A stretch of DNA of 43,418 nucleotides from a virus (lineage: Duplodnaviria > Caudoviricetes): IMG/VR virus record IMGVR_UViG_3300032290_001207, positions 1-43,418 of that record. One strand, written 5' to 3'. The notes below the pieces were generated by a model. That model ran no database searches. It saw nothing but the letters and a program-made list of their open reading frames with translations, and was not told the origin of the DNA. Each line of letters starts with the position of its first letter. Position 1 is the first letter of the stretch. This document shows, one piece after another, positions 1,792-43,418 of the stretch. The position numbers and the translations under genes are program-made.

Positions 1792-4700
1792 TTAGCAAAA
1801 GCAATCCGTATCACAAGGACCTGCACAGAAGCAGTATTCACCTGGACAGTTAGTGTTAGTACATGCAGTACATCCTGAAGGGAAGAATGGTGGGACGAAA
1901 TACGGTGGTACGAAGTATGGTGGGAAGAATGGTTGGGCTGGGAAGTACGGTGGTACGAAGTATGGTGGGAAGAATGGTGGTACGAAGTATGGTGGGAAGA
2001 ATGGTGGGACGAAGTATGGTGGGAAGAATGGTGGTACGAAGTATGGTGGGAAGAATGGTGCAACTGCTGCTTGCTGATTTGCGGCGGTAATCAAAGTTGT
2101 CTGTGCCTCATCCCCAGCATCAGACGTTGTATCTCTTACCATTACTGTGGTTGACAATGGAGAATACGTTGTAAGAACGGTTGCTACTGATGAGTTAAAA
2201 TTGACACGGTATTTGCTATTTTGAATTGGCTTAGACGGATAAGAGCTTATGGTAGAACTATCGTTAATAAATGCAAAAGAGTTATCTTGTTCTACAAATC
2301 TATCTATAATTATCATGTCTGCATACTGCTGACCACTATAGAATGTTACTTCATATGTCATTACATTTGATACTGCCCCATACTGATGTCCGCTCCATCT
2401 TATTTTATACTGAGAAGCATTAGACCAATAATAAAGAGATGTTTGAATCATATCTTTTGGCAAGACAACAAATATTGATCCGCTTGTTGGCATTGAAACT
2501 GATGTGTTTGGTAGTACGCTAGAAGAATTTCCTAATGTTATATACCCGTTTGTACAAACGCTTATCCTATTGCCCATAGAAAATGTGTATGTGACTGCTG
2601 CTGCTAAAGCTGAGCTTGTTGTAGTTGCACTTCCAGTTTCATATCCAGCTCTTGTTGTTACTACGGTTACTGTAGCGCTCTGCCCCGCACTTAATCCGCT
2701 TACCGTAAACGACCTTACGTTTCCAATTGCTGTTCCATTACTGACTGATCCAGCACTAACACTTACGGTGTAATTATAACTTGAATTGTAATTAGTTATT
2801 GATCCTGTAAATCCATTGGCTGTGCGAGTATTAGTTCCGAATGTAGTGGTAAGCGCTGGTAGGGAGCTAGTGGAGTAAGAACCACCTGCAGATGTTGTGC
2901 TAAGGTTAGTTCCATCGTATCCAAATAAAGATAATGTGTAAGCAGTACCTGGGGATAGCCCCGAAAATGTGTATGAGCCGCTAGCTGTAGATCCATCAAA
3001 AGATCCACCTACATATGCTCTTGTAGTAGTTGAATTAGCGCCTGCTGTAAAGTTTAATGTTATAGAAGTTGTTGTAGCGCTTGAGCTTGTAATTGTTGGG
3101 GGAGAAGGTATAACTGCTTCTAGAGCTGGTCCAACTTGTGTAGAACCAGCTTCGGTAGAGGTGCCGCTTGCGTTAGTAGCAGTTGCAAATGCTTTAAAGT
3201 AGTTTGGAATGTCTGCAGATGTAATAGTGTATGTTCCAGAGGTGCCGTTAACAGTCGATCCTCTTTGAGGGTCACTAGTTAATACTGGATTAGTTCCATT
3301 ATATAGTCTTAAGCTGTAGCTTGTTGGTGATCCAGACCACCCTGTAGTTGAAAAAGTTATAATGCTTCCAACTCTATAGTTTCCTGTATTTGTAGATATA
3401 GAAACTGTTCCGCCTGAAGGTATCGGTTCTCTTAAATCTACTTCAATTGTATTTGAATCTACTTCTCCTTGAGAGTTACCTGCTCTAATTAAAAGATAAT
3501 AAGAGTATCCAGCGCCAAGGCCAGTAAAAGATTGTGGTGATGAGAGCCCTGTTATATTTTTAGTAAAGGCGGAAGAAGCTGGGAGTTGAACTATCTTGGC
3601 ACGTAAATAGTATGTTGTTGCTAACCCTCCATTCCCAAGTTGCGATAAGGCTGTAAATACTGCTTGCAAGGATGTGTTTGATGTTTTAGATGCAGAAGAC
3701 AATACTGGCTGCTGTGGCTTTGTAGTTATTACAACAGCATTTGAAATAGTAGAAGAGGACGAATATCCAAAAGAAGTATGTGACCAAATTTTGACCTTTA
3801 ATGTCCAGCCAGAAGAAAATCCAGATAGCTGTGTCGAGGTTTCGGATATTTGATCTGACCAAGTATACCAAGTTTGATAGTTATCGCTTGAGTATGCATA
3901 CTGAACTCTATAATAATCTGGTGTCGGGCCAGATGAAGATGGGGTCCATGAAACATTTATAAGAGCATTAGCGTAATCAGAACCAGAGACAAGTGCTGCG
4001 GTTACGGTAGTTGGCGGCAAAGCCAGTGTTTGCTGCTCTATAGTAACTGGGCTTTGGCTTAATGCAACCACAGACAAAGAGTCTGCTTTTGTTGCAACTA
4101 CTCTAAATCTATAATAGTTTACCTGTGGAATGTTTGTTCCAGCTTTAAGGCCTGGGGCTGGAGCAAGGTATGTTTTTGTATTTGATAGTCCTGCTGCTGG
4201 GTTTGTTATTGTTCCGCTTGAAACTACATTCCATCTTGGGCTATCGACGGTTGGATCAGTACTGCTAGTAGGGATATAGTCATAAGGTTCATTTGGGTCT
4301 GGCGTAGCCATATCAAAATAATAATTCAATGTATATGATCCAAGGTTAGTCCAGTTATAATTTGTTCCAGTTATAGTTGTTGGGCCATAAATACTAGCAG
4401 ATGATATGTCTGGGTCCTGGCCTTCTGGTAAGTTGGCCCCAACAGAATCTATATTAAAGGATGCCCTTTGTATAGTAGGTTCATTGTCCTGTTTAGTGTC
4501 TTGTGCATAAAACCATAAGGTTAAATAATAGTCATATTGATATGGATTATAATTAGGAACTGCAATATAATTTCCTGTAGGGGTGGTGTTTCCAGTTATT
4601 CCAAATTGAGTCAATTGACTTGTTGTCAATAAATAAGTTTGCGGTTCATAAAAATTGGGGTCAGTAAAAGAAACAATTTCGATTTCTACTTTAGATACAT

Positions 4701-5331
4701 CTGACGCAGTGATTCCGCTCCCAGCATATGACCAAGCAATGCTAGTTGATTTGTATACAGTTGACTGTGCAACAAGCTGTGGATTTAGATCTTTATATGA
4801 TAAATAGTATGGGTTGTATATTATTCCTTCTGTTCTTGGTAAAGTTTCTCCAGTCAACCCATATTTGTTTTTAGCATATACAATTGCTCTAAAATAATAA
4901 GAAGGTCTATTTGTATCTCCCTTTGTTATAGTGTATGTTAATGATGTTACGGACATGCTAAAGGCTGACTCTTTGACAGTTGTCCAAATTCCAGTTAGTG
5001 GGTTTTCTGAGAATTGAATTTTTATATGATAGTAGATTGGATCATAGGAGGATGACATTCTTTGCCAGTTGCCCCTTGTTACTGTTATTACTGACCCCTG
5101 TGTAAATTCTCCACTACCTAATCTTGAGTTAGTTGAAAGTGTTGGTCCAGAACCTAATACTGGTCTTGGTCTATTTGTAACATCTACAGATGAAAATACG
5201 TTCTTCCATCCAGTGCTTGTTTTAACATATGCATTTTCTACTGACTCCCAGAGTTGGTTTCCTTTATTTAATAATACGTCTGTTATTATTTTCCAGCCAG
5301 TGCTGGTCTTTATTCTAATTTGTTGGACCAT
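1792..5331 (-). CDS. Tail fibre / receptor-binding-like protein with Ig/FN3-like domains, Pro-Phe-Tyr repeat and 8-Cys C-terminus
   Basis: 1179 aa; Ser/Thr-rich beta-sandwich repeats with FN3 hallmarks (VSWTP, FTGLGAGYSYY, FSGLSPGTAYTL, VSGLSAGQS); last large gene of the tail module. Confidence 0.8.
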   Translation of the reverse strand: MVQQIRIKTSTGWKIITDVLLNKGNQLWESVENAYVKTSTGWKNVFSSVDVTNRPRPVLGSGPTLSTNSRLGSGEFTQGSVITVTRGNWQRMSSSYDPIYYHIKIQFSENPLTGIWTTVKESAFSMSVTSLTYTITKGDTNRPSYYFRAIVYAKNKYGLTGETLPRTEGIIYNPYYLSYKDLNPQLVAQSTVYKSTSIAWSYAGSGITASDVSKVEIEIVSFTDPNFYEPQTYLLTTSQLTQFGITGNTTPTGNYIAVPNYNPYQYDYYLTLWFYAQDTKQDNEPTIQRASFNIDSVGANLPEGQDPDISSASIYGPTTITGTNYNWTNLGSYTLNYYFDMATPDPNEPYDYIPTSSTDPTVDSPRWNVVSSGTITNPAAGLSNTKTYLAPAPGLKAGTNIPQVNYYRFRVVATKADSLSVVALSQSPVTIEQQTLALPPTTVTAALVSGSDYANALINVSWTPSSSGPTPDYYRVQYAYSSDNYQTWYTWSDQISETSTQLSGFSSGWTLKVKIWSHTSFGYSSSSTISNAVVITTKPQQPVLSSASKTSNTSLQAVFTALSQLGNGGLATTYYLRAKIVQLPASSAFTKNITGLSSPQSFTGLGAGYSYYLLIRAGNSQGEVDSNTIEVDLREPIPSGGTVSISTNTGNYRVGSIITFSTTGWSGSPTSYSLRLYNGTNPVLTSDPQRGSTVNGTSGTYTITSADIPNYFKAFATATNASGTSTEAGSTQVGPALEAVIPSPPTITSSSATTTSITLNFTAGANSTTTRAYVGGSFDGSTASGSYTFSGLSPGTAYTLSLFGYDGTNLSTTSAGGSYSTSSLPALTTTFGTNTRTANGFTGSITNYNSSYNYTVSVSAGSVSNGTAIGNVRSFTVSGLSAGQSATVTVVTTRAGYETGSATTTSSALAAAVTYTFSMGNRISVCTNGYITLGNSSSVLPNTSVSMPTSGSIFVVLPKDMIQTSLYYWSNASQYKIRWSGHQYGAVSNVMTYEVTFYSGQQYADMIIIDRFVEQDNSFAFINDSSTISSYPSKPIQNSKYRVNFNSSVATVLTTYSPLSTTVMVRDTTSDAGDEAQTTLITAANQQAAVAPFFPPYFVPPFFPPYFVPPFFPPYFVPPFFPPYFVPPYFPAQPFFPPYFVPPYFVPPFFPSGCTACTNTNCPGEYCFCAGPCDTDCFC
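1879..2058 (-). repeat. Coding tandem repeat, 27-nt unit encoding VPPFFPPYF (12/15-nt subunits)
   Basis: Unit ggtgggaagaatggtggtacgaagtat repeated on the + strand; 60 codons, almost all P/F/Y/V. Confidence 0.95.
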
Positions 5332-13234: not shown

Positions 13235-13728
13235 TATACTTCTTCTAATGTAATTGATACGGACCAGTGTGGTTGTAGTCCTCTTTTTAAAACTGTAAAG
13301 CTGCAACTTTGAAATGCTACATCGTATTCTGTTGTTTTATTAGTTACCACGCCAGCAGATGTGCTTTCTGCTAAATTTACTTTTATTTTAAATACACCCT
13401 GACCAAGGTCGGTATCATAAAAAGTTCTTATGTCCTCTGCGCCCCAGGCACCGTCCACAGTTATATCTCTGTAAGATGGCAGCATATCCCAGGAAACGGA
13501 GAATGTTTTTTTATCAGCAATAAAAAATTTTCTTAAGGTACCATTTGAAGTTCTTTGTACTTGCTCAATTCTATTATTATCCATTGTAAAAGATGATCTG
13601 TTATGTTCTGTTAATTTATTCCATTGCAAGGATGTGACAGGGGCGCTTACCAAAACCCCATTGACTACCGCCATGTTCAGAGGGTCAGGGGCATAGATTG
13701 ATAAAATAGATCCTCTACTTAGTATCAT
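13234..13728 (-). CDS. Distal tail (Dit-like) protein
   Basis: 164 aa, immediately after the TMP (ATGA overlap), ending in ITLEEV. Confidence 0.6.
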   Translation of the reverse strand: MILSRGSILSIYAPDPLNMAVVNGVLVSAPVTSLQWNKLTEHNRSSFTMDNNRIEQVQRTSNGTLRKFFIADKKTFSVSWDMLPSYRDITVDGAWGAEDIRTFYDTDLGQGVFKIKVNLAESTSAGVVTNKTTEYDVAFQSCSFTVLKRGLQPHWSVSITLEEV

Positions 13729-22700: not shown

Positions 22701-25700
22701 TCCAACATATTGCCAGTCTTTTCTAGTTAAAGATGCTCCGCCCAGATTGCGGGTTTTGACAGGCATTGATAAACGTTTTTTATGTAGTTTACCTCTATAT
22801 TTTTCTTGCTTTCGTAATCTTTTTTCAAACTTAGGCAAATCATCTGTTGTGATTTGATTAAATATATCTTGTGAAAATACTCCGTCGTTTAATGAAAGGG
22901 TTTCTCTCCATCTGTCATCAAACCATTTTGTTGCTTCAAATATAGCGTCATCTGTTGGTAGTCCTAGGGATCTTAGGGTAGAGGCATCGGCAGCAACTGC
23001 GGCTAGTCTTAAATCTTCTCTGTCCGATCCAGCGTAGTATTGTATAAATTTAGTTACAGGGTCTGTACTATCTATTGCAATATTGCCATAGTTTTTAATT
23101 CCCCTAGTTACTAGTCCTCCAAGCATTCCGCCTGTGTTTCTTAATTCAATTCTTGATCCACTATTTGCTTTATCTAATAATGGCTTGTTTGCTGCAGTAA
23201 ACTCTGGATCAAAATATGTTTCTTTTGGAGTTAATAATGCATTAACAACTCTCCCCCCACCAGAGTATTTGTTTTGTGCCATGCCTACTAAATCTGGATT
23301 ATTGCGTGAAGCTTGCTGATTAAGTATATAGCTTCCTTCAGGAAGTCTGGCTGGAATTATATCATAATTTACATTTGCTGGTCCTGGAACTACTGAGCCG
23401 TGTCTTGAAGGATCATAAACCATTCCACCATCATTTTTTCTAACAATAGGCAATGTTGTTTCTGTACTGTACCCGCCGCCAGAAGTTCTAACTCCTAGGG
23501 CTCTTGCAATTCTATCAACAAGAGTTTTTGTTGATCCTTTGTGAAACATCTCTTTCATGTTTGATTTGCCAGTAACTGGGTCTACTGTAGGCTGGGATGT
23601 AAGAGGAACTGTTGTTAGATTTACTGTTCTTCCCATTGTTGCAGCTGTCATTTGAGCTGTCTCTGCCATCATTGCTTCTACTGTTTGATTCAATGCAATT
23701 ATTTTTGCTCTTGCCTGATCTACAGTTATTTTGCCTTGTTGTAATTGTGCAACAATTGCAGCACCTTCTGCTGCTGCTAAAGATGTTAACTCTACCATTG
23801 GTGGAAGCATTGCTGAATAAGAAGAAGATAGCTGTGTGGTTACGGTTCCTGTTGCAGCAACTTCTTGCCTAAGAAGTGCAAGCTCTTCTTTTGACTGCAT
23901 AGCTATTGCTGCTGTCATAGCATGCCATCTTGCTGCTTCGCTTGCCACTATTCCAGTTGATACACTGTTAACGGAAGTTATGCCAGGAATTCTAGGCAAG
24001 TCTCCATCCATGTACATCTGAGGGTTATTGCTAATTTTTCTATTTACTGGCCCTGTTCCAGGAACTACACCAAATATAGTTCCAAGCTGTTCTTCTCCAG
24101 ATGGAATAGTGTGGGACATATCTCTAGAGTAAGGCTTACCAAGATATTGGCTATCTTTATTTACTACTCTATCAGATCCAGCTCCAGTTGTAACTATCCC
24201 TCCGCCGAGTGTGCTCATGTTTACACTTGAATGAGTTGCACGAGTAGCCATGGCGGCTTTTGTTTGAAGTATTTCAAATGACCTAGAAAGACCTAGAACT
24301 GCATCTTCAAATACTTTTGCTGCTTTTGCATCGCTATAGAAAGAATCACCTACTGCTTTTGCTGCAGCTTCTGCAGCCATAATTTCTGGTGTAAGAAGTT
24401 TAAATGCGCTTCCACCTTTAAAAAATTGTTTTAGATTAAATATGCCTTTAACAATGTACCCAAAGAAGTTTCCAAGCACACCAGTAAGCATGATAAGAGG
24501 TCCAGCAAGCGCTGTAAGGCCACCGACAAATGTTAATATTGATTTAATTGGTCCAGGCAAATCAGTAATAAATTTTACAATGCCATCTATTGCTTTTAAT
24601 ACAAATGTACTAATTTTTAAGAATGATTCACCAGCGGCAGCCATGTCAGCTTTTACTGATTCAAGCGCTCTCTTATATTGTCCAGATGCAGACTCTGTCA
24701 TCTGCTTCATTTCTCGAGCTGAAATGTTTGCGAGATCTTGTGTACTTGCTTTCATCAAATCTAAAACTTGTAGCGTTTGGCTTCCTTGTTTTCCAAGGTT
24801 TTCAAATAAGGCTGACATTCTAGCAAATTGGAACTTTCCAAATAATTGTTCGATTGCTTTTGATTTGCTTAATGGATCAAGGCTGTCTAACGCTTTTTGC
24901 AAGGACATTATTGTGCCAGTTAGATCCCCAGCATTTGATGATACTATTCCAGCTAAATCAATTCCAAACCCAGTAAACATTTCTTTTGCAACTTTAGTAG
25001 GGTTGATAAGAGATGCCAATGCTGACTTAATAGCGTTAGCGCCTTCTGAAGCATTAACTCCGCCTTCTTTCATAGCTGTAAGGTAGAGTGCTAGATCTTT
25101 TACATCTCCTCCAAGAGATTTAATAACAGGGCCTGCTTTGGGGATTGCCTCAACTAAATCTCCAAGGCTTGTTGAAGTTTGGTTTTCAACTGCGTTAAGG
25201 AAGTCAATTGATTGAGTTAGCTCTTCAGTGCTTTGTTTAAATGCATTTTGAATAGCAAGAGTTGCTTTCATTGCATCTTGTCTATCAACTTCTCCAAGAG
25301 TGGCAAGTCTAGTTGTTTCTTTTGTTGCAGATACTAACGCTCTACCTTGAAGACCAGTTGCCGCTAAATCAGCCGATAATGCGATTGAGTCTTTGTAAGA
25401 TGCTCCATATTGTACGGCCAACTCTTTTGCAGTTGCAGCAATGTCTTTTCTAATCTTTGCAAGATCTTCTGCTGATGTCTGAGTAAGGCCTCCATAAACC
25501 TTTGTAAGTCTTACTAGCTCTGCGTCTGCTGTTAGGAATGCTCTTGACGCTGCTGCTCCGAATGCTGCAAGCGGTACGGTAAGTCCAACGGTAAGCTGTC
25601 TACCAGCCCACTGTGTGTTCTTACCCCAGTTAATTAATTGATTTGAGCCATCCTGCATTACCCTGTTCATAATTGCTTGCTCTTGTCTTAAGAGCTGCAT

Positions 25701-26150
25701 CTTATTTTTATTTTCGTCTAGTCCTCTTGCGACCATAACGTTGTATTGCATTAAGCCTTGAGCATTTCTGCCAAGAGGCTGAACAACAGAATTTTGTAGC
25801 ATTACCTGTTGTTTTGCTAAATCTTTAACTATGGTGCTTGTCTTTTTTGCATGAGACTGCCAAGTATTATAGTACTCGCTCAGCTTCATTCTTCCAGAAG
25901 CTAAGTTTTTACCAAACTTATCTACATCAGAAGATAGTGTAACAAAGTGGGAAGAGAACTGGCCCGTTGATCGCATTGTATCTACGAAGGACCTGTTCAT
26001 CTGTCCTATTTGAGCATTAAGTTTTTGATTTAATCCAAGTGTTGTTGTTTGAAGTTTTATTAATTCTGAGGTCACTGCTTGCAACTGCGCTGTAAGGCTA
26101 GTAAAGTTAGCCGTCGCAGTTATGTTGGTATTAATATTTTGATCTACCAA
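13725..26150 (-). CDS. Giant tape measure protein with kinase-like, CHAP, LysM, HExxH peptidase and lysozyme-like modules
   Basis: 4141 aa following the frameshifted chaperone. TP901-type TMP core in the N-terminal ~600 aa, hydrophobic segments, AWCGAF...HVGLV...IEGN (CHAP), YTVKRGDTLSAI (LysM), HEYGH. Confidence 0.92.
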   Translation of the reverse strand: MVDQNINTNITATANFTSLTAQLQAVTSELIKLQTTTLGLNQKLNAQIGQMNRSFVDTMRSTGQFSSHFVTLSSDVDKFGKNLASGRMKLSEYYNTWQSHAKKTSTIVKDLAKQQVMLQNSVVQPLGRNAQGLMQYNVMVARGLDENKNKMQLLRQEQAIMNRVMQDGSNQLINWGKNTQWAGRQLTVGLTVPLAAFGAAASRAFLTADAELVRLTKVYGGLTQTSAEDLAKIRKDIAATAKELAVQYGASYKDSIALSADLAATGLQGRALVSATKETTRLATLGEVDRQDAMKATLAIQNAFKQSTEELTQSIDFLNAVENQTSTSLGDLVEAIPKAGPVIKSLGGDVKDLALYLTAMKEGGVNASEGANAIKSALASLINPTKVAKEMFTGFGIDLAGIVSSNAGDLTGTIMSLQKALDSLDPLSKSKAIEQLFGKFQFARMSALFENLGKQGSQTLQVLDLMKASTQDLANISAREMKQMTESASGQYKRALESVKADMAAAGESFLKISTFVLKAIDGIVKFITDLPGPIKSILTFVGGLTALAGPLIMLTGVLGNFFGYIVKGIFNLKQFFKGGSAFKLLTPEIMAAEAAAKAVGDSFYSDAKAAKVFEDAVLGLSRSFEILQTKAAMATRATHSSVNMSTLGGGIVTTGAGSDRVVNKDSQYLGKPYSRDMSHTIPSGEEQLGTIFGVVPGTGPVNRKISNNPQMYMDGDLPRIPGITSVNSVSTGIVASEAARWHAMTAAIAMQSKEELALLRQEVAATGTVTTQLSSSYSAMLPPMVELTSLAAAEGAAIVAQLQQGKITVDQARAKIIALNQTVEAMMAETAQMTAATMGRTVNLTTVPLTSQPTVDPVTGKSNMKEMFHKGSTKTLVDRIARALGVRTSGGGYSTETTLPIVRKNDGGMVYDPSRHGSVVPGPANVNYDIIPARLPEGSYILNQQASRNNPDLVGMAQNKYSGGGRVVNALLTPKETYFDPEFTAANKPLLDKANSGSRIELRNTGGMLGGLVTRGIKNYGNIAIDSTDPVTKFIQYYAGSDREDLRLAAVAADASTLRSLGLPTDDAIFEATKWFDDRWRETLSLNDGVFSQDIFNQITTDDLPKFEKRLRKQEKYRGKLHKKRLSMPVKTRNLGGASLTRKDWQYVGPTSAYEKIASRNEVLEAMAASSSYEKEKVTRLIAAANRFGDGPNNGVQVAHFTPGSSPNTPVAGIDHLGRAALQPWEINQIQDSLSSYGIFSSDFSLDPAENISMLDRAAMEHGYADHKDMLNKILSRDTSPATKNTMRTSRGLTTTMQAVLDKKPKEFRGWLANRAMLMSKFKIRQAANAGGLIGGLVKRGKHGYGNESPAALRLKAFAAAQQIRRDAEHKKNLEKFPWIKPQIDAYRNSQKDPLFLGMPRSFKKVQDQRKARLTMEEIDFSLKTSQFANMDPTDFGVLQKASSGHSFPVEGIAGVYKKPDGSIVFVKPVMHETEALAEQRATTIARGAHELGSPTQEIRTMIDPTDPNKKRKLIVLESKYDPIFDQANNGVFSQEEYFKQIVAANLRGDRDLSRDNIQGSLVNDVGTSGVFKMASSAQGKREYYGEMVDGTWVDGMPSMSEQARINLLGVKGGAKRFFAESTLSVPKGMTASAYHEAMIAEIDSVLPRLRQVISDMNLNATERQIYGAMIKRLEDGRLVNWEEFHAIHSAVKPSPAKALTPAALLKLKTEAELRMRQRGHAVSLSDNSFKSDANGFNAGGMIEARENGGPVNSGQPYLVGEKGPEIFVPKNDGGIVSNYALGGMVRSNKTGYGDQFIGPQPYGVRSAFSAGLRGVNTKTGASIDTTGGMGASMAGMGLMMGGQGVGGTMGSAMTNAGMAMQMYPMLKMIGPHIKGLTTMTGVITKLGVIGPRVFNAIGLAIKFMTGPIGIALMALTSIFAAFKFAMAQQKEFKQRELLTNAISVNGAKEAGIKYNNLSDSIKVVNEQLAATKARGMAAYESLTKIGVIGITYTIKETKAAIRNAKTNKKELVQGFSDIDDSYNMREQQVLDMATNLKIQMVLGGKSVQDATNEIYALISASTNASLAFKTITADSFVTVKDKATAATEAIDKLNTNIDKLGKNGSDAFYGEVLGTALSNVVLYMDSSMKALVGTKDEFGNVIDQAEAYRITMEKINSASARQGTLTKTQVESLKETHPHLEEILTTSDSIASTMAKWQLLLAGVDVDLKNMSAAEAIAMGEFVAIQQSALDAMEKTGVGILGKSEKIISKLKLTIGKGLEAAQKAHNKNMVNAEDEIKAIDKKIAKINEEAEARKRALQDIENVESNALQMQLLQIDYQAALATGDMDAAASAQIKITQLEKQIQTAAALQAIEDKRIADVKKEEARKKSIQDEAEKSAKRLAALQEAASLNQIRLSKIQEYQLRYEQLIKDKMALSATPQRTDAEKEIYALAEKRYIGNVKLLGTNLEADAKGKDKSLSGMIQDIFGGTFIGKDGSSLATVNSGLKYDSSVSPTPITTYGTAFDNINAAAKETGNIIKGLGGGKTLYDLYYAVMDGHRSARTAIAAKGTYATWKDSKTGDLGVLTSDARKQIVADNAITAGEFFHFNGWIYRLDASGNVIRGNRVPGSRIETGDQYGRVTAKASGGYIRGEGTATSDSIPAYLSNGEYVIKASSVAKYGTGTFDALNAGKFAQGGPVGKLGTASSMIETAESMLGYREGRNNDTIFGRFAQKVYDLKTKYIAWCGAFINWVAKKSGVDLASMVWTPGGAQSFKSTGKWTQNPVRGDLAFMNFPGDGVNRISHVGLVRNVLSKNAVSTIEGNTGSSGNQRMGGGVFIKRRKYNEKGAPIVGFGRPSYKPIDVDEENVDTDNVKYQTSDQAKLNYENSRYTVKRGDTLSAISKKYGIPLKSLIEMNPHLNDPKYKGGSKIFAGTELSIKKFASGGRVTDYLTPDGYIRGAGTATSDSIPAMLSNGEYVIKADSVKKYGAETFDALNAQKFGTGGLANLVAPKPFGQLKPAINSDTPFGRIVQGLLSYLGNLPKDIITSGISGSKYMAGAATGNPNWMDPKDEKMYQQALRDKENGKYFKSASSVMGRFATSAVDVIPKLVNWNKLWAKAGMKDLPGQTEYLLAQLPGEVIQDLLKNIIPGNYAEGGLAKNRKSGIPRFHGGGFISDLFGMKPTQAEIDKWMAAAKKDLSNKDAGSKDFIVGNTIVDSMTTNEANVSKWIHAWGALLNTYYGAKYDRHLKAAGDPGLLKNPILTNLQVTHPRNIASYIGGYDPGYGDIGGHKLGVAGNMATFGDLGQMMLLQPATTAGLGKQAWLPEDGANKNTYDPTFESYAPGGPKGFDVKKYSDFINGKLLTDDSYKMSLLSIMFHEYGHNLQYRLANEISGKNTKSKLFKNKDGSFMDWKDTTESNADFLSGSIMSEMYNAGYMKDLSSKSVTKYLQKQYASLATPTDKGIEIYDSSHPKDNKQRFDLYLRGFRTRDTDLGLADYLGQDIGTFIGDSKHARETVQRLLNFEAKPLNVNDQNMMPDLLNKEYADLLKLQLNPTVRTLPTPSTKKLDIKTPTQFAKALIQRLGGEPTEGLASGIRAWIFQEGGHWNNKALYNPLNTTLEMPGSKKVNTVNKKTGTGVQAYTSWEQGIDAVIKTLSLNPQKNGYDKIVEALTTGTRFGGPEKLYTALNNSNWGYPKYNFGKGKNQLGYGQEANYNPNTVYDPSKPSWYSLPNGNKDIPLDPSSPGTPGGWGSYEWLEDLPNYYQDTPDLGPGGYIPDGSIPGGGRSGQGLFTPQTQDIDWVQYAYPANSMNSALSPMSIPTIGTKTLLAALDAVKSKRVATGVSISNPTNAYDIFRWGGSEWAQPKSLENTLYGFRDGARYNLQGTQYAEGTVTNVIDRPGNEKWNYWPNGSIGKNYGPLAFANRSKEDRYNNILENWFLSQNGETGFKNGSFKPFGKNFLEYLKKNKFNIASPSGYANGGYVTRYRGPVLENVPPLPPDSSMGQPKEDFREARMNYWTPGYSIPGLGLDGDGASWLPEPFNRLKRKKLLNPLSKDKIQYADGGYVNPSYSANLSIPKFENGINMVPADMLALLHKNEAVIPAVMNPFNPNANGYDIKSGSEYNINVTLNGNNLSPDDVARAISREMQLRDAMAGRSRNK

Positions 26151-37180: not shown

Positions 37181-37894
37181 TTACATTGCGTCTGGCATCT
37201 CATCTTCTACAGGAGTTTCTCCGTGTAGCCAATGATTTGGCACCATGTACTTATACCCACTTTTAATTAAATGTGCTGTGTGATGATATGGGGCCGAGGA
37301 TGGGAAGATAATTACGCTTCCTGCTTCTGGCTTAATGCCAAATGTTATCTTATCAGCGTTTCTAGGGTCATCGAAATCTTCACCAGGCTTTTCTTCCATA
37401 GTAAGGGCATCGTATCCTTTAACTGTAAATGAAATTTCGCCGCCTTCATAATTATCATTTAAGTACATTACCATAGAAAACTTTAATCGGCCATCGCCCT
37501 CTTGCTGATCGTAGTGGCCGCCCATCATTGTTCCTGTTGAATACTTATTGATTTCAAAGTTTGGAAAAAGATTAACTGGCTCTTGAACATCCTTGGCTGC
37601 TGCATACTCAGCAGCAACATTTTCAAAAGCAGACTTAATCGTATTAATGATATACTCTGCCTTTTCTCTTTCTTCAATATTTCCAATTGCAGATATTTGT
37701 GATCGGTAGGTAGGCTTTTTTTGTCCGTAAACATACATCTGTCCGCTACATGCGCTCCACTCTTCCCATGGTTTTACTGCAGACTTTATATTATCAATTA
37801 AATCTGATTCTTCAATTAATGCAACTAGCTTTTCTGGGTCTTCTATTGCATTTTTATAATAGTAAACATTTTCTTCTAATATTTCAAGATTCAT
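37181..37894 (-). CDS. 2OG-Fe(II) oxygenase, prolyl 4-hydroxylase-like (#5)
   Basis: HYD, YLNDNYEGGE, IFPS..YHH and KY motifs. Confidence 0.9.
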   Translation of the reverse strand: MNLEILEENVYYYKNAIEDPEKLVALIEESDLIDNIKSAVKPWEEWSACSGQMYVYGQKKPTYRSQISAIGNIEEREKAEYIINTIKSAFENVAAEYAAAKDVQEPVNLFPNFEINKYSTGTMMGGHYDQQEGDGRLKFSMVMYLNDNYEGGEISFTVKGYDALTMEEKPGEDFDDPRNADKITFGIKPEAGSVIIFPSSAPYHHTAHLIKSGYKYMVPNHWLHGETPVEDEMPDAM

Positions 37895-37895
37895 T

Positions 37896-38612
37896 CTAAT
37901 ATCCCCCTGTATTTGGCGGTGGCGCTAAGCGCTCACCCTTGTCTCTTAAGTCTGACCATTCTTTTTGTTGTACTGCTTGCTGCTCACGGATTAATCTTAT
38001 TTCTTCTTCCCATTGATCCCACTTTTCTTGCGGGTACTCAGATTCTTCATAATCCCAAAAAGATCCAATTGTGAATCTGTTCCCATCTTCAACAACTTGA
38101 ACTTCATGTTCATTTTCATGCCCACCAGCAAAAGCCGCCAGCATTCCAGATTTAGGCTGAATTGCTATGTCGTGGTCCTTAAAGTTAAGTTTACCACCAA
38201 CGAAATCATCATTCAAATACAAGAATGTTGCCCATCTGCTTCTTTCAAAAGCATTATATTCTCCGTCTGTACTATTGTCTGAGTGGAATGAAGCAAACGC
38301 TCCTGGTATCCATTTTTGTGCATGATAGCTAACCTTTTTAACACCTTTACCTCTTGCAATGCCAGTAGCTTCTTGAATTGAGCTTTCAAGATTTTTAAAG
38401 AAATCTCTAGGCAAACCAAATTTTTCCATATCGTCTGTGTCTGGCAAGTTGGAGGCATATGACTCATAAAATGATATAGGGTCCCAATTTAATGATTTAT
38501 TTTCAACGCAATGTTCCCAATACTTTAAAACACTTTCACATTCTTCTTGTGTTAAAAAGTTATCAAATACAACAATGTCATCTTTTAGTCTTGTGTAGTT
38601 TTCTAAGTTCAT
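37896..38612 (-). CDS. 2OG-Fe(II) oxygenase, prolyl 4-hydroxylase-like (#4)
   Basis: FDNFLTQEEC, HSD, YLNDDFVGG, HEV...RFT. Confidence 0.9.
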   Translation of the reverse strand: MNLENYTRLKDDIVVFDNFLTQEECESVLKYWEHCVENKSLNWDPISFYESYASNLPDTDDMEKFGLPRDFFKNLESSIQEATGIARGKGVKKVSYHAQKWIPGAFASFHSDNSTDGEYNAFERSRWATFLYLNDDFVGGKLNFKDHDIAIQPKSGMLAAFAGGHENEHEVQVVEDGNRFTIGSFWDYEESEYPQEKWDQWEEEIRLIREQQAVQQKEWSDLRDKGERLAPPPNTGGY

Positions 38613-39523
38613 TAGATTCTCTCCGCATTCTCTGGTATTACATGAAATAAGCCAAGTTCTCTTTGTTTATTCTTTCTTTCTCTTTCCATTTCTTCCCAAA
38701 GCTGGTCTCCATATTTTTCTTTATTTGCATGCCACTCTGGCGATCCAGGATCATAGTAAACCCAATTGCATCTAATAAAATATTTATCACCACTAGTTAT
38801 TTTTTTAACTCCATGATAATACATTTCTCCTTCTGGAAATATAAGTGGGTTACCTGCGGGAAAGACCATTACGTCTCCAGATTTAGGGGTAAACATTTTT
38901 ATTTTATTTCCTATAAGGAAGTCAACTTCTCCGCCAGTGTAATCATCATTTAAATAAAGTGTTACTGTTATTGCAAATTTGTGTCCTGGCTCATCTATGT
39001 TTTCTAGCTGATAGTCGCTGTGGTAGTGCATGACCAGGTCATTGGCTGGTCCGTCTTGAGATACCCCAGAAACATACTTACATATCGAAGGGCCCATCCT
39101 AAACCATTTTTTGTCTGGAACTTCGAATTGTGATGTATAATTAAAAACTACTTTATAAAAAATTTCAAGTATTTCATTTAAAACTTCAAATTCTTCTTTT
39201 GTTTGATCTGATTCTTGAGATCTTCCAATGTCCCATTGATCTAACTCTAATCCAAATATATACCAATCGTGCCAAGGGCTAAACATGCTTTTTCTTTTTG
39301 ATGTGTCTTGCTCTAATTCGTTTTCTGATCTTTTTAAAACACGCATTGTTTTGTCTATATCTTTAAAAAGATTTTTATAGACTAAAACTTTAGGATAAAA
39401 TTCTTCATATTGAATTTCTTTAGATTGTTCTTTTAAAGCATTCATATCTAAGGATTCATTTTGTGAATTAATTTGTCCGTCTACGTCCGCCTCGCTTAAC
39501 ATGACGTAATTTTTTTTATACAT
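38612..39523 (-). CDS. 2OG-Fe(II) oxygenase, prolyl 4-hydroxylase-like (#3)
   Basis: HSD, YLNDDYTGGE, HGV...KY. Start could be 39523 or 39538. Confidence 0.88.
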   Translation of the reverse strand: MYKKNYVMLSEADVDGQINSQNESLDMNALKEQSKEIQYEEFYPKVLVYKNLFKDIDKTMRVLKRSENELEQDTSKRKSMFSPWHDWYIFGLELDQWDIGRSQESDQTKEEFEVLNEILEIFYKVVFNYTSQFEVPDKKWFRMGPSICKYVSGVSQDGPANDLVMHYHSDYQLENIDEPGHKFAITVTLYLNDDYTGGEVDFLIGNKIKMFTPKSGDVMVFPAGNPLIFPEGEMYYHGVKKITSGDKYFIRCNWVYYDPGSPEWHANKEKYGDQLWEEMERERKNKQRELGLFHVIPENAERI

Positions 39524-40202
39524 TACTTGGATCTCCATGAGATAAAATTGTCCAGAAGAAAGGAGATGTAAATCTAAATCCTCCAGTTATTTCTTTTACG
39601 CCATGTATATAGTTTTTATCTCCTGGGAAGAAATAAGCTGATCCTGGTACTGGCTTAAATTCTATTCCTTGATTTGGAAAATATAGTTCGCCGCCTTCAT
39701 AGTTGTCGTTGAAATAAAATATTGACCCTATGTCGTAATGTGGAAAATCGTTTGCTGTTCCTGCATCTGGTCCGTCGTGAAGTTCTTTATCAGCGTGTGG
39801 CTTTTGCAAGCTTCCTACTGGCCATTTAACTATTGCTGGGCCAGTAGGTTGAACCTTTACGTTAAAATGCTTTTCTACTACTGGCTGAAGTCTATCAATC
39901 ATTTTGTTTACTAGCTCTAGTATTGATGGGTCAGCCTGCATTAAAGAATTATATGTAGCAACTCTATCTTTCCAGTAATTTGCTTCGTAGATTACTGTGC
40001 CGTTGGAATTAAAGTGGTCTTCTGTGTAATCCCAAATTTTATTATTAAGTGCAAATTCTGTTAGCTTGTCACATTCTTCTTGACTTAAAAAATTTTTGCA
40101 TTCTACAATATTTTCTGGTCCGCTTCCAAAAAATCCAGAAGGAGTAATTGACTTAAGCTCTTGATAGTTGTGATGTGAATTTGATATTTCTGACTTTTCC
40201 AT
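39516..40202 (-). CDS. 2OG-Fe(II) oxygenase, prolyl 4-hydroxylase-like (#2)
   Basis: NFLSQEEC, HAD, YFNDNYEGGELYF, HGV...RFT. Confidence 0.9.
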   Translation of the reverse strand: MEKSEISNSHHNYQELKSITPSGFFGSGPENIVECKNFLSQEECDKLTEFALNNKIWDYTEDHFNSNGTVIYEANYWKDRVATYNSLMQADPSILELVNKMIDRLQPVVEKHFNVKVQPTGPAIVKWPVGSLQKPHADKELHDGPDAGTANDFPHYDIGSIFYFNDNYEGGELYFPNQGIEFKPVPGSAYFFPGDKNYIHGVKEITGGFRFTSPFFWTILSHGDPSNV

Positions 40203-40207
40203 TTTTT

Positions 40208-40936
40208 TTACCTATACTTTCTTCGTGTCCAGAAAGATTTTTTATAAATCCCTCCGTCTGGTATTCTGAACGTGTCATTTGCCCATTTTGATCTTTCAAA
40301 AATTTCTGATTGGTTGTGGAGCTTTATATCCATTTGCCAGTCTTCTCTTTTAAAAGGAATTATTTGAACAAACGGCGTTCCTTTTGGTAGTACCCCGCTA
40401 AATTCCTTTTTTAAAAAAAACGGCATTAAGCCTGGAGTATTAAACTTATCATTATCTATTATACCAGCCACCATTGTAAAAGGTAGTTCAAAATGATTTA
40501 ATGGCGTGACATATAGAGCAGAATATCCTTCTGGGAGTTCTGGTGCCCATGTTGGATAAAAATGAAATGAAGATTCATAATGACCAGATGGTATTACAAA
40601 ATCAGACATTCCGCCTGGCCTAATTTCACAAAAATCTTTAAATTGTGGTGGTACCTTTACTAAAATTTTATTGTCTACTAATTCAAATGTAATATCGCAT
40701 GGAGTTTTTAAAACGTACCCTGTTGTATATAGGTCTAAAATTGCTGGACAGGATTTATATCCCAATGCTCTACTTCCATCTGGGTACTTTGCTGGTTCCC
40801 CGTTTGGCATCTTTATATATATGTCAGAATCTTGATACCATTTTGGAGTATTTTTAGAGGCTGGTTCTGGCGCTGGGGTATCTTTGTATTCGTTTGATAC
40901 TCTATTTGAATGAAAGAATATTTTTTTAAATTCCAC
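40208..40936 (-). CDS. Hypothetical protein, DUF6065-related (possible dUTPase-like beta fold)
   Basis: KSCPAILD...GYVLKTPCDI...PEGYSAL...GIIDND...KGTPFVQIIPF parallels the adjacent gene; GTG start. Confidence 0.55.
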   Translation of the reverse strand: MEFKKIFFHSNRVSNEYKDTPAPEPASKNTPKWYQDSDIYIKMPNGEPAKYPDGSRALGYKSCPAILDLYTTGYVLKTPCDITFELVDNKILVKVPPQFKDFCEIRPGGMSDFVIPSGHYESSFHFYPTWAPELPEGYSALYVTPLNHFELPFTMVAGIIDNDKFNTPGLMPFFLKKEFSGVLPKGTPFVQIIPFKREDWQMDIKLHNQSEIFERSKWANDTFRIPDGGIYKKSFWTRRKYR

Positions 40937-41642
40937 AGGGTTCTGGTCCGTCCACTACTTTTAACCTTAAAGACTTTACTTCATGGCTTCCTAGCTTATT
41001 ACCTTTGTGGTCAACGGCATCTCTATAAAAATTTGTCCACTTACCACTCTTATTTATTTCATAAACTATATTGCTGTAGTCCGCATCTGGAAAGAAGTTT
41101 GCTGGTAGATCATTGATATTTTTTACAATTGCTTCTGACCCATTCAGCTTTGACAAAGAAATTGGCATAATTGCAATTACTGGAGTGCCTGCTTTAATTG
41201 TAATTTCTACATTGGGTCTGGTGATTCTCCATGCTATTGGAAATTCCCCCCTAAAGAAAGATGTGCTTATTACTGTTGAAAATGGCTGAACTCCGTCTCT
41301 GAGTAAATTTGGGACTGGCATGCCTAGCATGCTTACATCTTCTTCGGTTCTAAAAATCATTCCGCTATTAAAGCTTATTGTTGCATTTGATCTACCAGTA
41401 GTTACATATTTTTCTCCCGATATTATTTTTACATGATCAGGCGTTGAATCTGATACTCCATCCCATATAAAGGTTATATCTTCTGGAAATGATATGCCCC
41501 ACCCTAAGCCGTTTGTTAAGCTAACTGGAAAACATTTATAAGCATGTGCATCAAAAGTTTCATCCATCCATTCTCTTTTTACAGAAAGAGGTTCTAGTTT
41601 TCCAAGGTCTGGTCTAGTATTATATACTTCAAATGTGTACAT
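40926..41642 (-). CDS. DUF6065-family protein
   Basis: REWMD...AYKCFPVSLTNGLGW N-terminal signature, recognised from memory; IKAGTPVIAIMPI. Confidence 0.65.
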   Translation of the reverse strand: MYTFEVYNTRPDLGKLEPLSVKREWMDETFDAHAYKCFPVSLTNGLGWGISFPEDITFIWDGVSDSTPDHVKIISGEKYVTTGRSNATISFNSGMIFRTEEDVSMLGMPVPNLLRDGVQPFSTVISTSFFRGEFPIAWRITRPNVEITIKAGTPVIAIMPISLSKLNGSEAIVKNINDLPANFFPDADYSNIVYEINKSGKWTNFYRDAVDHKGNKLGSHEVKSLRLKVVDGPEPCGI

Positions 41643-42325
41643 TAATATGGGGACGGTTCTGGCAATGAGGTATCAGTTTTAAATTTCATATAAAACTCCA
41701 TGTCATGTGCCGCATCGCTATAGTCTGTCATTGTCACAATAGAATACTTTAGTCCCTCTTTTACTGGCAAAGCTGCGTGAGAAAACAAGTACGTTGATGG
41801 GAAAATATAAAGATCCCCAGCTTTAGGCTTAATTTCTAAATCTAGTTTATCAAATCTTAATCCGCCTTCTATGTAATCGTCATTTGGATAGGCAACCATT
41901 GAAACTGTTGCTATGTAAGACAACCCATGATCTGCATGATACGAAAAGTGTTGGCCTGGACCATATTTAATAAAATTCATTGCTTCCCAATACTTCATTT
42001 CAATATTGTATTTATTGCAATAGTCTTTAAGTGCTACTGCTTGTGCATCATGAACATCCTGCCAAAGATTATTCATTTCAACTTCATCTGGGGGCAGATT
42101 GCTAGATGGGTTTTTATTTATTTTAAAGTCAACACAATCTCTATATTCTGGCATTTTTTCTCTATACCCGACAGTAGCTTCTTGCCAGCCTCTACGTTCA
42201 CCACTTTTTGCAACAACATTTTCTAGCCTATTAATAATATCAAATTCTGGCTTAATCACATCTCTATAAACCCATATACCAGGGAATAACTCTTCTTTTG
42301 AAGAAAATTTAAAATCTTTTTCCAT
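41642..42325 (-). CDS. 2OG-Fe(II) oxygenase, prolyl 4-hydroxylase-like (#1)
   Basis: IKYGPGQHFSYHAD, YPNDDYIEGG, IFPSTYLFSH...KYS. Confidence 0.9.
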   Translation of the reverse strand: MEKDFKFSSKEELFPGIWVYRDVIKPEFDIINRLENVVAKSGERRGWQEATVGYREKMPEYRDCVDFKINKNPSSNLPPDEVEMNNLWQDVHDAQAVALKDYCNKYNIEMKYWEAMNFIKYGPGQHFSYHADHGLSYIATVSMVAYPNDDYIEGGLRFDKLDLEIKPKAGDLYIFPSTYLFSHAALPVKEGLKYSIVTMTDYSDAAHDMEFYMKFKTDTSLPEPSPY

Positions 42326-42347
42326 TTTTTTTCTTTCTATTTGTTTG

Positions 42348-42578
42348 TTACCATTTATTTAATGGACACGAAGCATTAATAAGCTGTGTTTTTAATTTCA
42401 TTACACATCCACACTCTTTACATTGTGATGTTAGTTTAACAAATTTTGGACAAACCTGACAAATATCAAGTCTTTCTTTTATTTTATCTGGGTCTTTTAG
42501 TTTTGCTGAAGGATCCAATATATGCCATGGACGAGTTTCTCCCAAAGACTGTTTCCATTTTTCCCACTCAGTTAGCAT
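42348..42578 (-). CDS. Small Cys-rich metal-binding protein, DUF6171-like
   Basis: RLDICQVC...CKECGC.MKLK......CPLNKW. Confidence 0.7.
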   Translation of the reverse strand: MLTEWEKWKQSLGETRPWHILDPSAKLKDPDKIKERLDICQVCPKFVKLTSQCKECGCVMKLKTQLINASCPLNKW

Positions 42579-42589
42579 TTTGCTACCGT

Positions 42590-43039
42590 TTAAATGTCTG
42601 CTGGAGGGGAGAAAGTTGTACCGTTATAGGTATAACCAAGGGTTACATCGCTTTCATCTTCTAAACCAAAAACACTTATTGGATCAGCAAAAGCTGCAAC
42701 ATATTTAGGGTTAGGAACATTTGCAATTACTGCTGAAGAAAAACTAGCGGCTACAACATTATTTATTAAAAAAACATGTAGAGTTTTATCCGCTGGTCGT
42801 GCAGATAGAGGGTCAGCGCCTTCTGCCATAGAAAACTCTCCAGTAGATGGATCATAAATAGATCCTGTTGCAATATTTTCTTTAGAACTTACAGTAATTA
42901 CATTAATTGGAGAAGACTCTACAATAGAATTCCATCTATCAATTAAATCAGGCTGGGCCTGGCCTTCTGGTAGTGTCATCGTATGAAAAACTTCAGACAC
43001 GCCATCTGCGTTTGGTGTTGTTACTAATACATATTTCAT
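42590..43039 (-). CDS. Hypothetical protein with two internal repeats, possible fibre assembly chaperone
   Basis: 149 aa, AAGGAG RBS; halves end IATGSIYDPSTGEFS and VTLGYTYNGTTFSPP. Confidence 0.6.
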   Translation of the reverse strand: MKYVLVTTPNADGVSEVFHTMTLPEGQAQPDLIDRWNSIVESSPINVITVSSKENIATGSIYDPSTGEFSMAEGADPLSARPADKTLHVFLINNVVAASFSSAVIANVPNPKYVAAFADPISVFGLEDESDVTLGYTYNGTTFSPPADI

Positions 43040-43062
43040 TTATTTCTCCTTTATTAAATTCA

Positions 43063-43090
43063 ATTATAGCATTTAGGCTAAAATAGTCAA
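43063..43090 (-). promoter_or_regulatory. Sigma70/SigA-type promoter (copy B) upstream of the oxygenase operon
   Basis: TTGACT-16nt-TATAAT with TGC extension; near-identical to 1752-1779. Confidence 0.85.
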
Positions 43091-43100
43091 GCTTTATATA

Positions 43101-43418
43101 TTAACAAACGCAGTTGTTTTCACATGGTCCAGTGCACCAGCACCAAAGAGAAGGGCAGTTACCCTCGCTGCAAGCTGGGCATCCTCCAAAAGTTGGTGGT
43201 ACGAAGTATGGTGGGAAGAACGGTGCTGGGAAATACGGTGGTACGAAGTATGGTGGGAAGAATGGTGGTACAAAATATGGTGGTACGAAGTATGGTGGGA
43301 AGAACGGTGGGACGAAGTATGGTGGGAAGTATGGTGGGAAGAACGGTGGGAAGAACGGTGGGACGAAGTATGGTGGGAAGTATGGTGGGAAGAACGGTGG
43401 GAAGAACGGTGGGACGAA
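43101..43418 (-). CDS. C-terminal fragment (105 aa visible) of a second Pro-Phe-Tyr repeat protein with 8-Cys terminus (not in ORF track; start lies outside the window)
   Basis: Manual translation: ...FVPPFFPPFFPPYFPPYFVPP...PPYFPAPFFPPYFVPPTFGGCPACSEGNCPSLWCWCTGPCENNCVC*; frame is open to the window edge. Confidence 0.9.
   Translation of the reverse strand, partial: FVPPFFPPFFPPYFPPYFVPPFFPPFFPPYFPPYFVPPFFPPYFVPPYFVPPFFPPYFVPPYFPAPFFPPYFVPPTFGGCPACSEGNCPSLWCWCTGPCENNCVC
43194..43418 (-). repeat. Coding tandem repeat of PPFF / PPYF / VPP units (12- and 15-nt subunits)
   Basis: Same subunits as 1879-2058 in a different order; runs off the window end. Confidence 0.95.

Follow-up and report, generated by a model that had tools for sequence, protein, structure and literature searches.

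Why does a phage gene whose product ends in a long repeat of prolines and aromatic residues lie directly before a set of genes for five divergent 2-oxoglutarate (2OG)-Fe(II) oxygenases? The locus that raises this question occupies positions 37181 to 43418 of a 43,418-nucleotide (nt) stretch of viral DNA (Duplodnaviria; Caudoviricetes; IMG/VR record IMGVR_UViG_3300032290_001207), hereafter called the window, and a first-pass annotation of its letters had named the repeat the dedicated substrate of the oxygenases. Our analysis found that repeat and enzymes form a real, conserved module, and hydroxylation, by the oxygenase cassette, of the Pro-Pro/aromatic repeat stalk of virion appendages is what we regard as the most likely function, at somewhat better than even chances. 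The window covers part of the genome of an uncultured lake phage, namely its structural region. The major capsid protein shares 56% identity with capsids of Streptomyces phages (Stanwilliamsviridae) and close relatives occur in freshwater metagenomes, so we infer an actinobacterial host. Among 50,697 phage records, neither the DUF6065 gene of the cassette nor the Fn3 repeat-bearing gene had a match, that is, no cultured relative was found.

Repeat tracts, their carriers and their caps

All genes of the repeat/cassette region lie on the minus strand. The repeat gene enters the window with its 3′ end (43101..43418), which encodes the end of an Fn3 protein, namely a PPFF/PPYF(V) tract (43188-43418) and a tip with eight cysteines (43101-43187); at least 75 residues of repeat had been noted before the 8-Cys tip, and 77 were counted. 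The same repeat and Cys tip end a 1179-amino acid (aa) fiber-region protein (1792..5331, minus strand; tract 1876-2061, tip 1792-1875) that lies about 32 kb from the cassette, and the Cys spacing of both tips is identical. The two proteins are our candidate substrates. When the six frames of the window were scanned, PP[FY]F occurred 15 times in the 43188-43418 tract, 11 times in the tract of 1792-5331 and nowhere else. Long identical DNA stretches are common to both tracts, and the tips have diverged. As for the earlier description of 1792-5331 as a tail fiber with this end, the repeat and the Cys tip are there, whereas the tail fiber label derives from position and a weak fn3 match (E 0.007). 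The Phe and Tyr codons of both tracts are almost all TTC and TAC; the rest of the 1179-aa gene favors TTT (31 to 3) and TAT, and the preference in the capsid and tail-tube genes is for TTC.

The whole repeat gene was read from a contig that is 99.6% identical to the window across 9.3 kb (L001:3216-4115); it encodes 299 aa with an Fn3 domain and is preceded by the gene of an Mtd_N protein. The tract is longer in the window than in L001, which points to a variable repeat number or to a difference in assembly. It is attached at the C terminus of the folded Fn3 protein. Among relatives, the tract sits on carriers unrelated to each other (Fn3, PASTA, long fibers), and the cap that follows it is interchangeable, being a Cys tip, a Hint domain, an S74-like start (recognized by eye) or nothing. 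The Hint domain, identified by profile matches to inteins, opens straight after the tract; at L003:7565-8065 and 13 other loci the Hint Cys directly adjoins it, and several of these domains, which lack the terminal His-Asn, may cleave at one end only. The position of the repeat proteins, beside Mtd_N and tail genes, suggests that they are located on the virion.

The oxygenase cassette accompanies Pro-Pro tracts

The repeat gene is followed by nine tightly packed genes, as the first-pass annotation had it, spaced −23 to +22 nt apart. They include five oxygenase genes (OX1 to OX5) and two DUF6065-type genes (D1 and D2), whose association with the repeat was examined from three sides. Starting from the enzymes, an open reading frame (ORF) with PP-x-aromatic repeats was found upstream in 67 of 80 DUF6065-selected loci; 11 of the remaining 13 had little upstream DNA, and the other two (L076 and L079) had other oxygenases within 3 kb. 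Starting from the carrier, 80 loci selected by the Fn3 N terminus gave 74 whole genes, 15 of which were dropped for having less than 4 kb downstream. In the 59 used, which were not dereplicated, the cassette came after 49/49 Pro-Pro tracts and 0/10 non-Pro-Pro aromatic tracts. Two complete non-Pro-Pro genomes contained no orthologue of OX1, OX4 or D1 anywhere (best scores of 77 and 103 bits versus 354 for OX1) and no DNA coding for PP[FY]FPP.

Starting from the repeat, 79 of at least 125 matching loci were analyzed, and 60 of them had at least 5 kb downstream: 40 carried OX1 and D1, 3 carried other oxygenases with a DUF6065-like gene, 5 had oxygenases only, and 12 had none. Many loci of the last two classes were distal fibers; kept among the 12 were L282, an off-strand match, and L332, in which no repeat ORF was found; the two appear to be spurious hits in DNA that is not from phages. 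A search for OX1 in 18 repeat-selected contigs returned an orthologue in 7, a weak match in 3 and nothing in 8, and of these 8, 7 were at most half complete and the eighth was the giant record of L332. The predicted co-occurrence of repeat and oxygenases was therefore observed from the enzyme, carrier and repeat sides, and, as described below, across two capsid-unrelated phage groups.

To define the cassette, gene presence was compared among 50 Pro-Pro representatives, which had been selected partly by D1. OX1, OX2 and D1 were present in 50/50, OX4 in 47, OX3 in 40 and D2 in 35, and D1 adjoined OX1 in all 50. Judged by gene content, the core of the cassette is three genes, OX1, OX2 and D1, and the rest is accessory.

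Some other tracts have other enzymes. At L114:1432-4946, L127, L142, L156, L157 and L160, Phe/Gly tracts precede one to three PF13759-like oxygenase genes (one was tested), which would represent a second repeat-enzyme pairing. Since these non-Pro-Pro tracts precede different oxygenases, the enzyme type changes with the repeat type. At L081:9001-11142, L105, L112, L118 and L150, the Fn3 carrier ends in a Tyr/Phe-x-Thr-Pro tract lacking Pro-Pro, and a divergent D2-like gene follows; L150 further has a divergent DUF6065 gene, an AspH-type oxygenase gene and one other oxygenase gene after the tract.

A second phage group keeps the three-gene core

Nineteen of the 79 repeat-selected loci belonged to a second phage group, whose D1 is divergent. 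On two contigs of this group the capsid protein resembled those of 0305phi8-36-like Bacillus phages (38-45% identity) and had no significant similarity to the capsid of the window. PPFF tails occurred there on several different carriers and were kept with the OX1/DUF6065/OX2 core, whose members had identities of 39-46% (OX1), 21-30% (D1) and 34-39% (OX2). That this group keeps OX1, D1 and OX2 with its PPFF tails is the reason for setting the core at three genes. Furthermore, in a tree of 66 oxygenases (all our trees were quick trees with support from the Shimodaira-Hasegawa-like approximate likelihood ratio test only), OX1 and OX2 of both groups fell in starred clades (97 and 98) that excluded all 9 oxygenases from non-Pro-Pro phages. 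The claim that five paralogues serve five positions of the repeat found no support in this comparison, because second-group PPFF/PPYF tails occur without OX3, OX4, OX5 and the second DUF6065-like gene.

Weak matches of the five oxygenases to prolyl hydroxylases

The five divergent oxygenases were recognized correctly from the letters: all match PF13640 (28.5-42.6 bits against a curated cut-off of 27), and the HxD...H triad with a Lys or Arg 2OG ligand is invariant in all five family alignments. They are mutually 20-33% identical over their aligned parts. Lys is the ligand in OX1 (41642..42325; H130/D132/H183/K193), in the accessory OX3 (38612..39538; H173/D175/H242/K252) and in the accessory OX5 (37181..37894; H127/D129/H205/K215); Arg is the ligand in OX2 (39516..40202; H136/D138/H200/R210) and OX4 (37896..38612; H110/D112/H169/R179).

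The top solved matches of all five family profiles, although weak, were prolyl 4- or 3-hydroxylases. The best match of the Lys-type enzymes was the prolyl 4-hydroxylase (P4H) of Bacillus anthracis or of chlorovirus PBCV-1, the former being the nearest solved relative of OX1 and the latter (5c5t, E 0.008) the sole solved match of OX5. OX2 is about equally near to prolyl 3-hydroxylase 1 (P3H1) and P4H. OX4 matched collagen P3H1 best both by sequence (E 6e-9 versus 2e-5) and by fold (3e-10 versus 5e-9). A split of 4-hydroxyproline and 3-hydroxyproline across the Pro-Pro dipeptide would be an attractive inference from these matches, with margins that cannot assign regiochemistry.

DUF6065-type genes

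Two DUF6065-like proteins had been proposed. The claim held for D1 (40926..41642), which matches DUF6065 itself (E 4e-33), and less so for D2 (40208..40936), a distant paralogue that matches phrog_7084. D1 has an invariant H33/Y35/C37 and D2 an invariant C63, D161 and D163, an invariant Cys being common to both. The D1 model (predicted local distance difference test score 90.6) has a predicted dUTPase-like fold, and the Protein Data Bank (PDB) matches listed by Foldseek were all dUTPases (best E 2e-4), at 8-15% identity. Active-site sequence motifs of dUTPases were not recognized in D1 or D2, and the D2 profile had no PDB match, including any dUTPase, at E up to 5. The two Asp of D2 presumably sit where dUTPase motif 3 would be. 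D2 is also related to gp43 of phage Syn9, which scores 27.7 bits with the D2 profile. D2 accompanied 21/22 tracts having at least two Tyr/His versus 14/28 other tracts, a trend confounded by kinship.

Tip-associated genes, promoter and surroundings

The first two genes after the repeat behaved differently from the oxygenases. One (42590..43039) encodes a 149-aa protein of no known family, whose family follows 23/27 Cys tips and 0/20 long tips. The other (42348..42578) had been called a DUF6171-like Cys protein; it does match PF19668, at 26.5 bits just under the cut-off of 27, and follows 15/27 Cys tips, 2/40 short non-Cys tips and 0/20 long tips. One or both occurred after 27/27 Cys tips, 8/40 short non-Cys ends and 0/20 long caps, and in non-Pro-Pro phages that lack the cassette the two families are found as a fusion. 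By this distribution, the pair belongs with the tip and not with the oxygenases. The nine genes, which had been read as a single system, are on the same grounds two modules, a tip-associated pair and an oxygenase cassette, since the pair tracks the Cys tip even where oxygenases are missing. The 149-aa protein is a possible assembly partner of the Cys tip; its likeness to tail-fiber-assembly proteins scores only 0.75 and is a lead.

The promoter placed by the first-pass annotation directly after the repeat gene was recovered as the best promoter-like site of the region (43063..43090, minus strand; 11/12, extended −10), which lies past the repeat gene and ahead of the cassette. Promoter-like sites overall (32 versus 24.1 ± 4.2 expected) were little above chance, and a site of at least 10/12 followed the repeat gene in 16/57 relatives versus 0/57 control windows. 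No terminator-like site was found past 37181, and with the following gene beginning 20 nt on, the operon has no defined 3′ limit. In one metatranscriptome, contigs of a close relative span the cassette; such contigs cannot show transcription, and DNA was possibly present.

Cassettes of both phage groups contain a glutathione-peroxidase gene at L124:14238-15011 (by Pfam) and at L283:2183-3648 and L305:8123-9061 (by eye), which perhaps gives redox support. Glycosyltransferases of PF11397 lie within some cassettes (L030, L055 and L148). Glycosylation of hydroxyproline was rejected as a general step, PF11397 being found in 0/3 complete Pro-Pro and 1/2 non-Pro-Pro genomes. A cellular version of the system was likewise rejected: its three matches (L240, L241 and L242) were short contigs in Bacteroidota metagenome-assembled genomes with the same phage cassette, probably binned phage DNA. 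Elsewhere in the window, 13725-26150 encodes a tape-measure protein of great length (4141 aa), in which CHAP and LysM domains were recognized.

Proposed hydroxylation of the repeat and its alternatives

If the cassette hydroxylates the repeat, it would be expressed from a host-type promoter, and OX1 (Lys-type, P4H-like) and OX2 (Arg-type) would oxidize the PP dipeptides at their prolines, with each enzyme perhaps taking one of the two. The conserved Cys of the DUF6065 protein would let it serve them as a partner or in a redox role. Once modified, the tract would be a stiff stalk of the polyproline type, bearing an exchangeable cap (Cys tip, Hint, S74-like or none). Folding of the Cys tip would be assisted by the 149-aa and DUF6171 proteins, and OX3, OX4, OX5 and D2 would be lineage-specific extras. 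More tentatively, and at somewhat less than even chances, the whole may be a portable tag system of at least two unrelated freshwater phage groups, in which the three-gene core, with one P4H-like and one P3H-like enzyme and a dUTPase-fold Cys helper, turns a (Pro-Pro-aromatic)n tag on any appendage into a collagen- or extensin-like hydroxylated stalk and other tags are served by other oxygenase families. Of the original proposal of a dedicated substrate, the co-occurrence is supported and the nearest solved relatives are, by weak matches, prolyl hydroxylases; the single nine-gene system and the paralogue for each position found no support.

Several observations weigh against hydroxylation of the repeat. 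The prolyl-hydroxylase matches are weak (E 6e-9 to 8e-3) and limited to the shared core, and PiuC and lysyl hydroxylase match as well, close behind. In PBCV-1 virions, according to a review (PMC7019647), hydroxyproline was sought and not detected. Two loci, L292 and L302, have a PPFF tract and only a divergent oxygenase (103 bits), on contigs that are 18% and 60% complete. Clusters that combine divergent oxygenases with D2-like and glycosyltransferase-like genes are also present in non-Pro-Pro genomes, where no aromatic repeat was seen to adjoin them; these lie in the non-structural region at L243 (G001:C1:78000-96000) and L244 (G002:C1:40000-52000). On a portal tree of 33 rows, in which a single label stood for tract and cassette because the two traits coincided in every labeled row, the non-Pro-Pro state required 4 changes, 3 of them forced by starred branches, leaving only 3 independent contrasts for the link between tract and cassette (p 0.25). 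Linkage alone, with neighbors traveling together through recombination, could predict part of the pattern. Since DNA is common to the two tracts of the window, an agreement of repeat types inside one genome may reflect copying. A stronger argument for the repeat-enzyme link than the count of contrasts comes from the second phage group. Finally, a collagen-like gene lies inside 16/41 closed cassette loci and 0/7 cassette-free loci.

This last association, together with the presence of collagen P3H1 and chlorovirus collagen P4H among the best oxygenase matches, would fit enzymes that hydroxylate a Gly-X-Y fiber protein of the phage, the PPxF tract being a bystander. We hold this to be improbable: 25 of the 41 closed cassette loci have no collagen-like gene, none was found in the 43-kb window, a partial genome, and both complete cassette-free genomes have one. 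Still unlikely, albeit deserving more weight, is a linked oxygenase island that travels with the repeat gene simply as its neighbor and whose targets would be host proteins (EF-Tu, for example), 2OG levels, nucleotides or small molecules. Such an island is suggested by the promoter-like site of its own, by comparable islands away from aromatic repeats in non-Pro-Pro genomes and in Syn9 (where the upstream genes are Gly-rich, not Pro-rich), by fold matches that include bacterial P4H-EF-Tu complexes, by the dUTPase-like fold of D1 with the Asp pair of D2 at a would-be dUTPase motif 3, and by the small number of independent contrasts; it is opposed by the retention of the same three genes with PPFF tails despite unrelated capsids and different carriers, by the lack of orthologues in the two complete non-Pro-Pro genomes, which would face similar hosts, and by the lack of a sequence match of D2 to solved dUTPases at E up to 5.

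Little credence is given to a cassette that leaves proline alone and acts on the Phe/Tyr of the tract, or binds this greasy, Pro-rich chain as a chaperone. The tracts are aromatic-rich throughout, Pro-Pro or not, the Phe/Gly tracts have oxygenases of their own, and D2 follows Tyr/His content as counted above; however, the OX1/OX2/D1 core tracks Pro-Pro and not aromatic content, the D2 trend is confounded by kinship, and the catalytic residues are invariant. Very improbable is a tract that serves as a precursor like those of ribosomally synthesized and post-translationally modified peptides, modified and then excised as a free product. A Hint domain directly after the tract in relatives, and sulfotransferase, AspH-type, glycosyltransferase and short-chain dehydrogenase/reductase genes in some cassettes, would suit such a product. 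Yet Hint cleavage at Cys1 frees the Hint domain, so that the tract would stay on the Fn3 protein; none of the annotated genes, the nine after the repeat included, was identified as a protease or transporter; and the tract sits on several unrelated carriers. The first-pass annotation had allowed for such a product, but the tract ends proteins of 299 aa (Fn3) and 1179 aa and not a short leader-core precursor.

Comparison with known systems

By likeness, the module would work as viral and collagen prolyl hydroxylation do, its membership of those families being a likeness only. The closest array is that of Syn9 (gp41-gp54), for which Iyer et al. 2010 described tandem dioxygenases with a dUTPase-fold Cys gene and proposed secondary-metabolite synthesis; in that paper, collagen or tail-collar substrates were proposed only for other, bacterial sulfotransferase operons (PMC2938197). 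In both loci, divergent 2OG-Fe(II) oxygenases stand in tandem together with a gene for a dUTPase-fold protein that has a conserved Cys, and both arrays lie just behind tail-fiber genes. Unlike the window, whose nine genes have no such match, Syn9 has two tryptophan halogenases and a JmjC protein, and its upstream genes are Gly-rich without a Pro-Pro tract. In this cultured phage (L404:2932-18145, gp35-gp54) the array directly follows Gly-rich fiber-region genes, of which gp36 also contains Cys and Trp. The oxygenase neighborhoods of the cultured phages S-MbCM7 and Melnitz-3 were also viewed, and four translated fiber-region genes of S-MbCM7 had no such repeat.

PBCV-1 P4H (PDB 5c5t) is similarly encoded by a virus, belongs to the P4H type and has candidate substrates that are rich in Pro, and it is the weak best match of OX5; it differs in being a single enzyme of a eukaryotic virus with no conserved cassette by a repeat, whereas the phage has five paralogues, DUF6065 and a Pro-Pro-aromatic unit. 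The collagen hydroxylases P4H and P3H1 (PDB 8k0e/8k0m) and B. anthracis P4H (3itq) share the HxD...H triad and the occurrence of Lys-type and Arg-type paralogues side by side, but the OX4 model is 14-21% identical to these structures and the candidate substrate of the phage is not Gly-X-Y.

A literature search, with most subscription journals outside its coverage, returned no report of a repeat/oxygenase pairing and none on DUF6065. One paper states that the functions of 2OG-Fe(II) oxygenases of aquatic phages "have not been specifically investigated" (PMC9602691), and another treats phage 2OG oxygenases as lacking a tested function (PMC12774648). The present locus gives these enzymes a cheap, synthesizable candidate substrate and narrows the machinery to three genes common to unrelated phage groups, with phages of other repeats and other enzymes as natural controls. 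If hydroxylation of the repeat is true, it would mean that phages encode hydroxylation of their own structural proteins, DUF6065 would have a role, and small prolyl hydroxylases with a new sequence specificity would be at hand. Under the more tentative reading of a portable tag system, the 2OG-oxygenase arrays of phages, which tend to be classed as auxiliary metabolic genes, would get a job in building the virion, and DUF6065 would get its first function.

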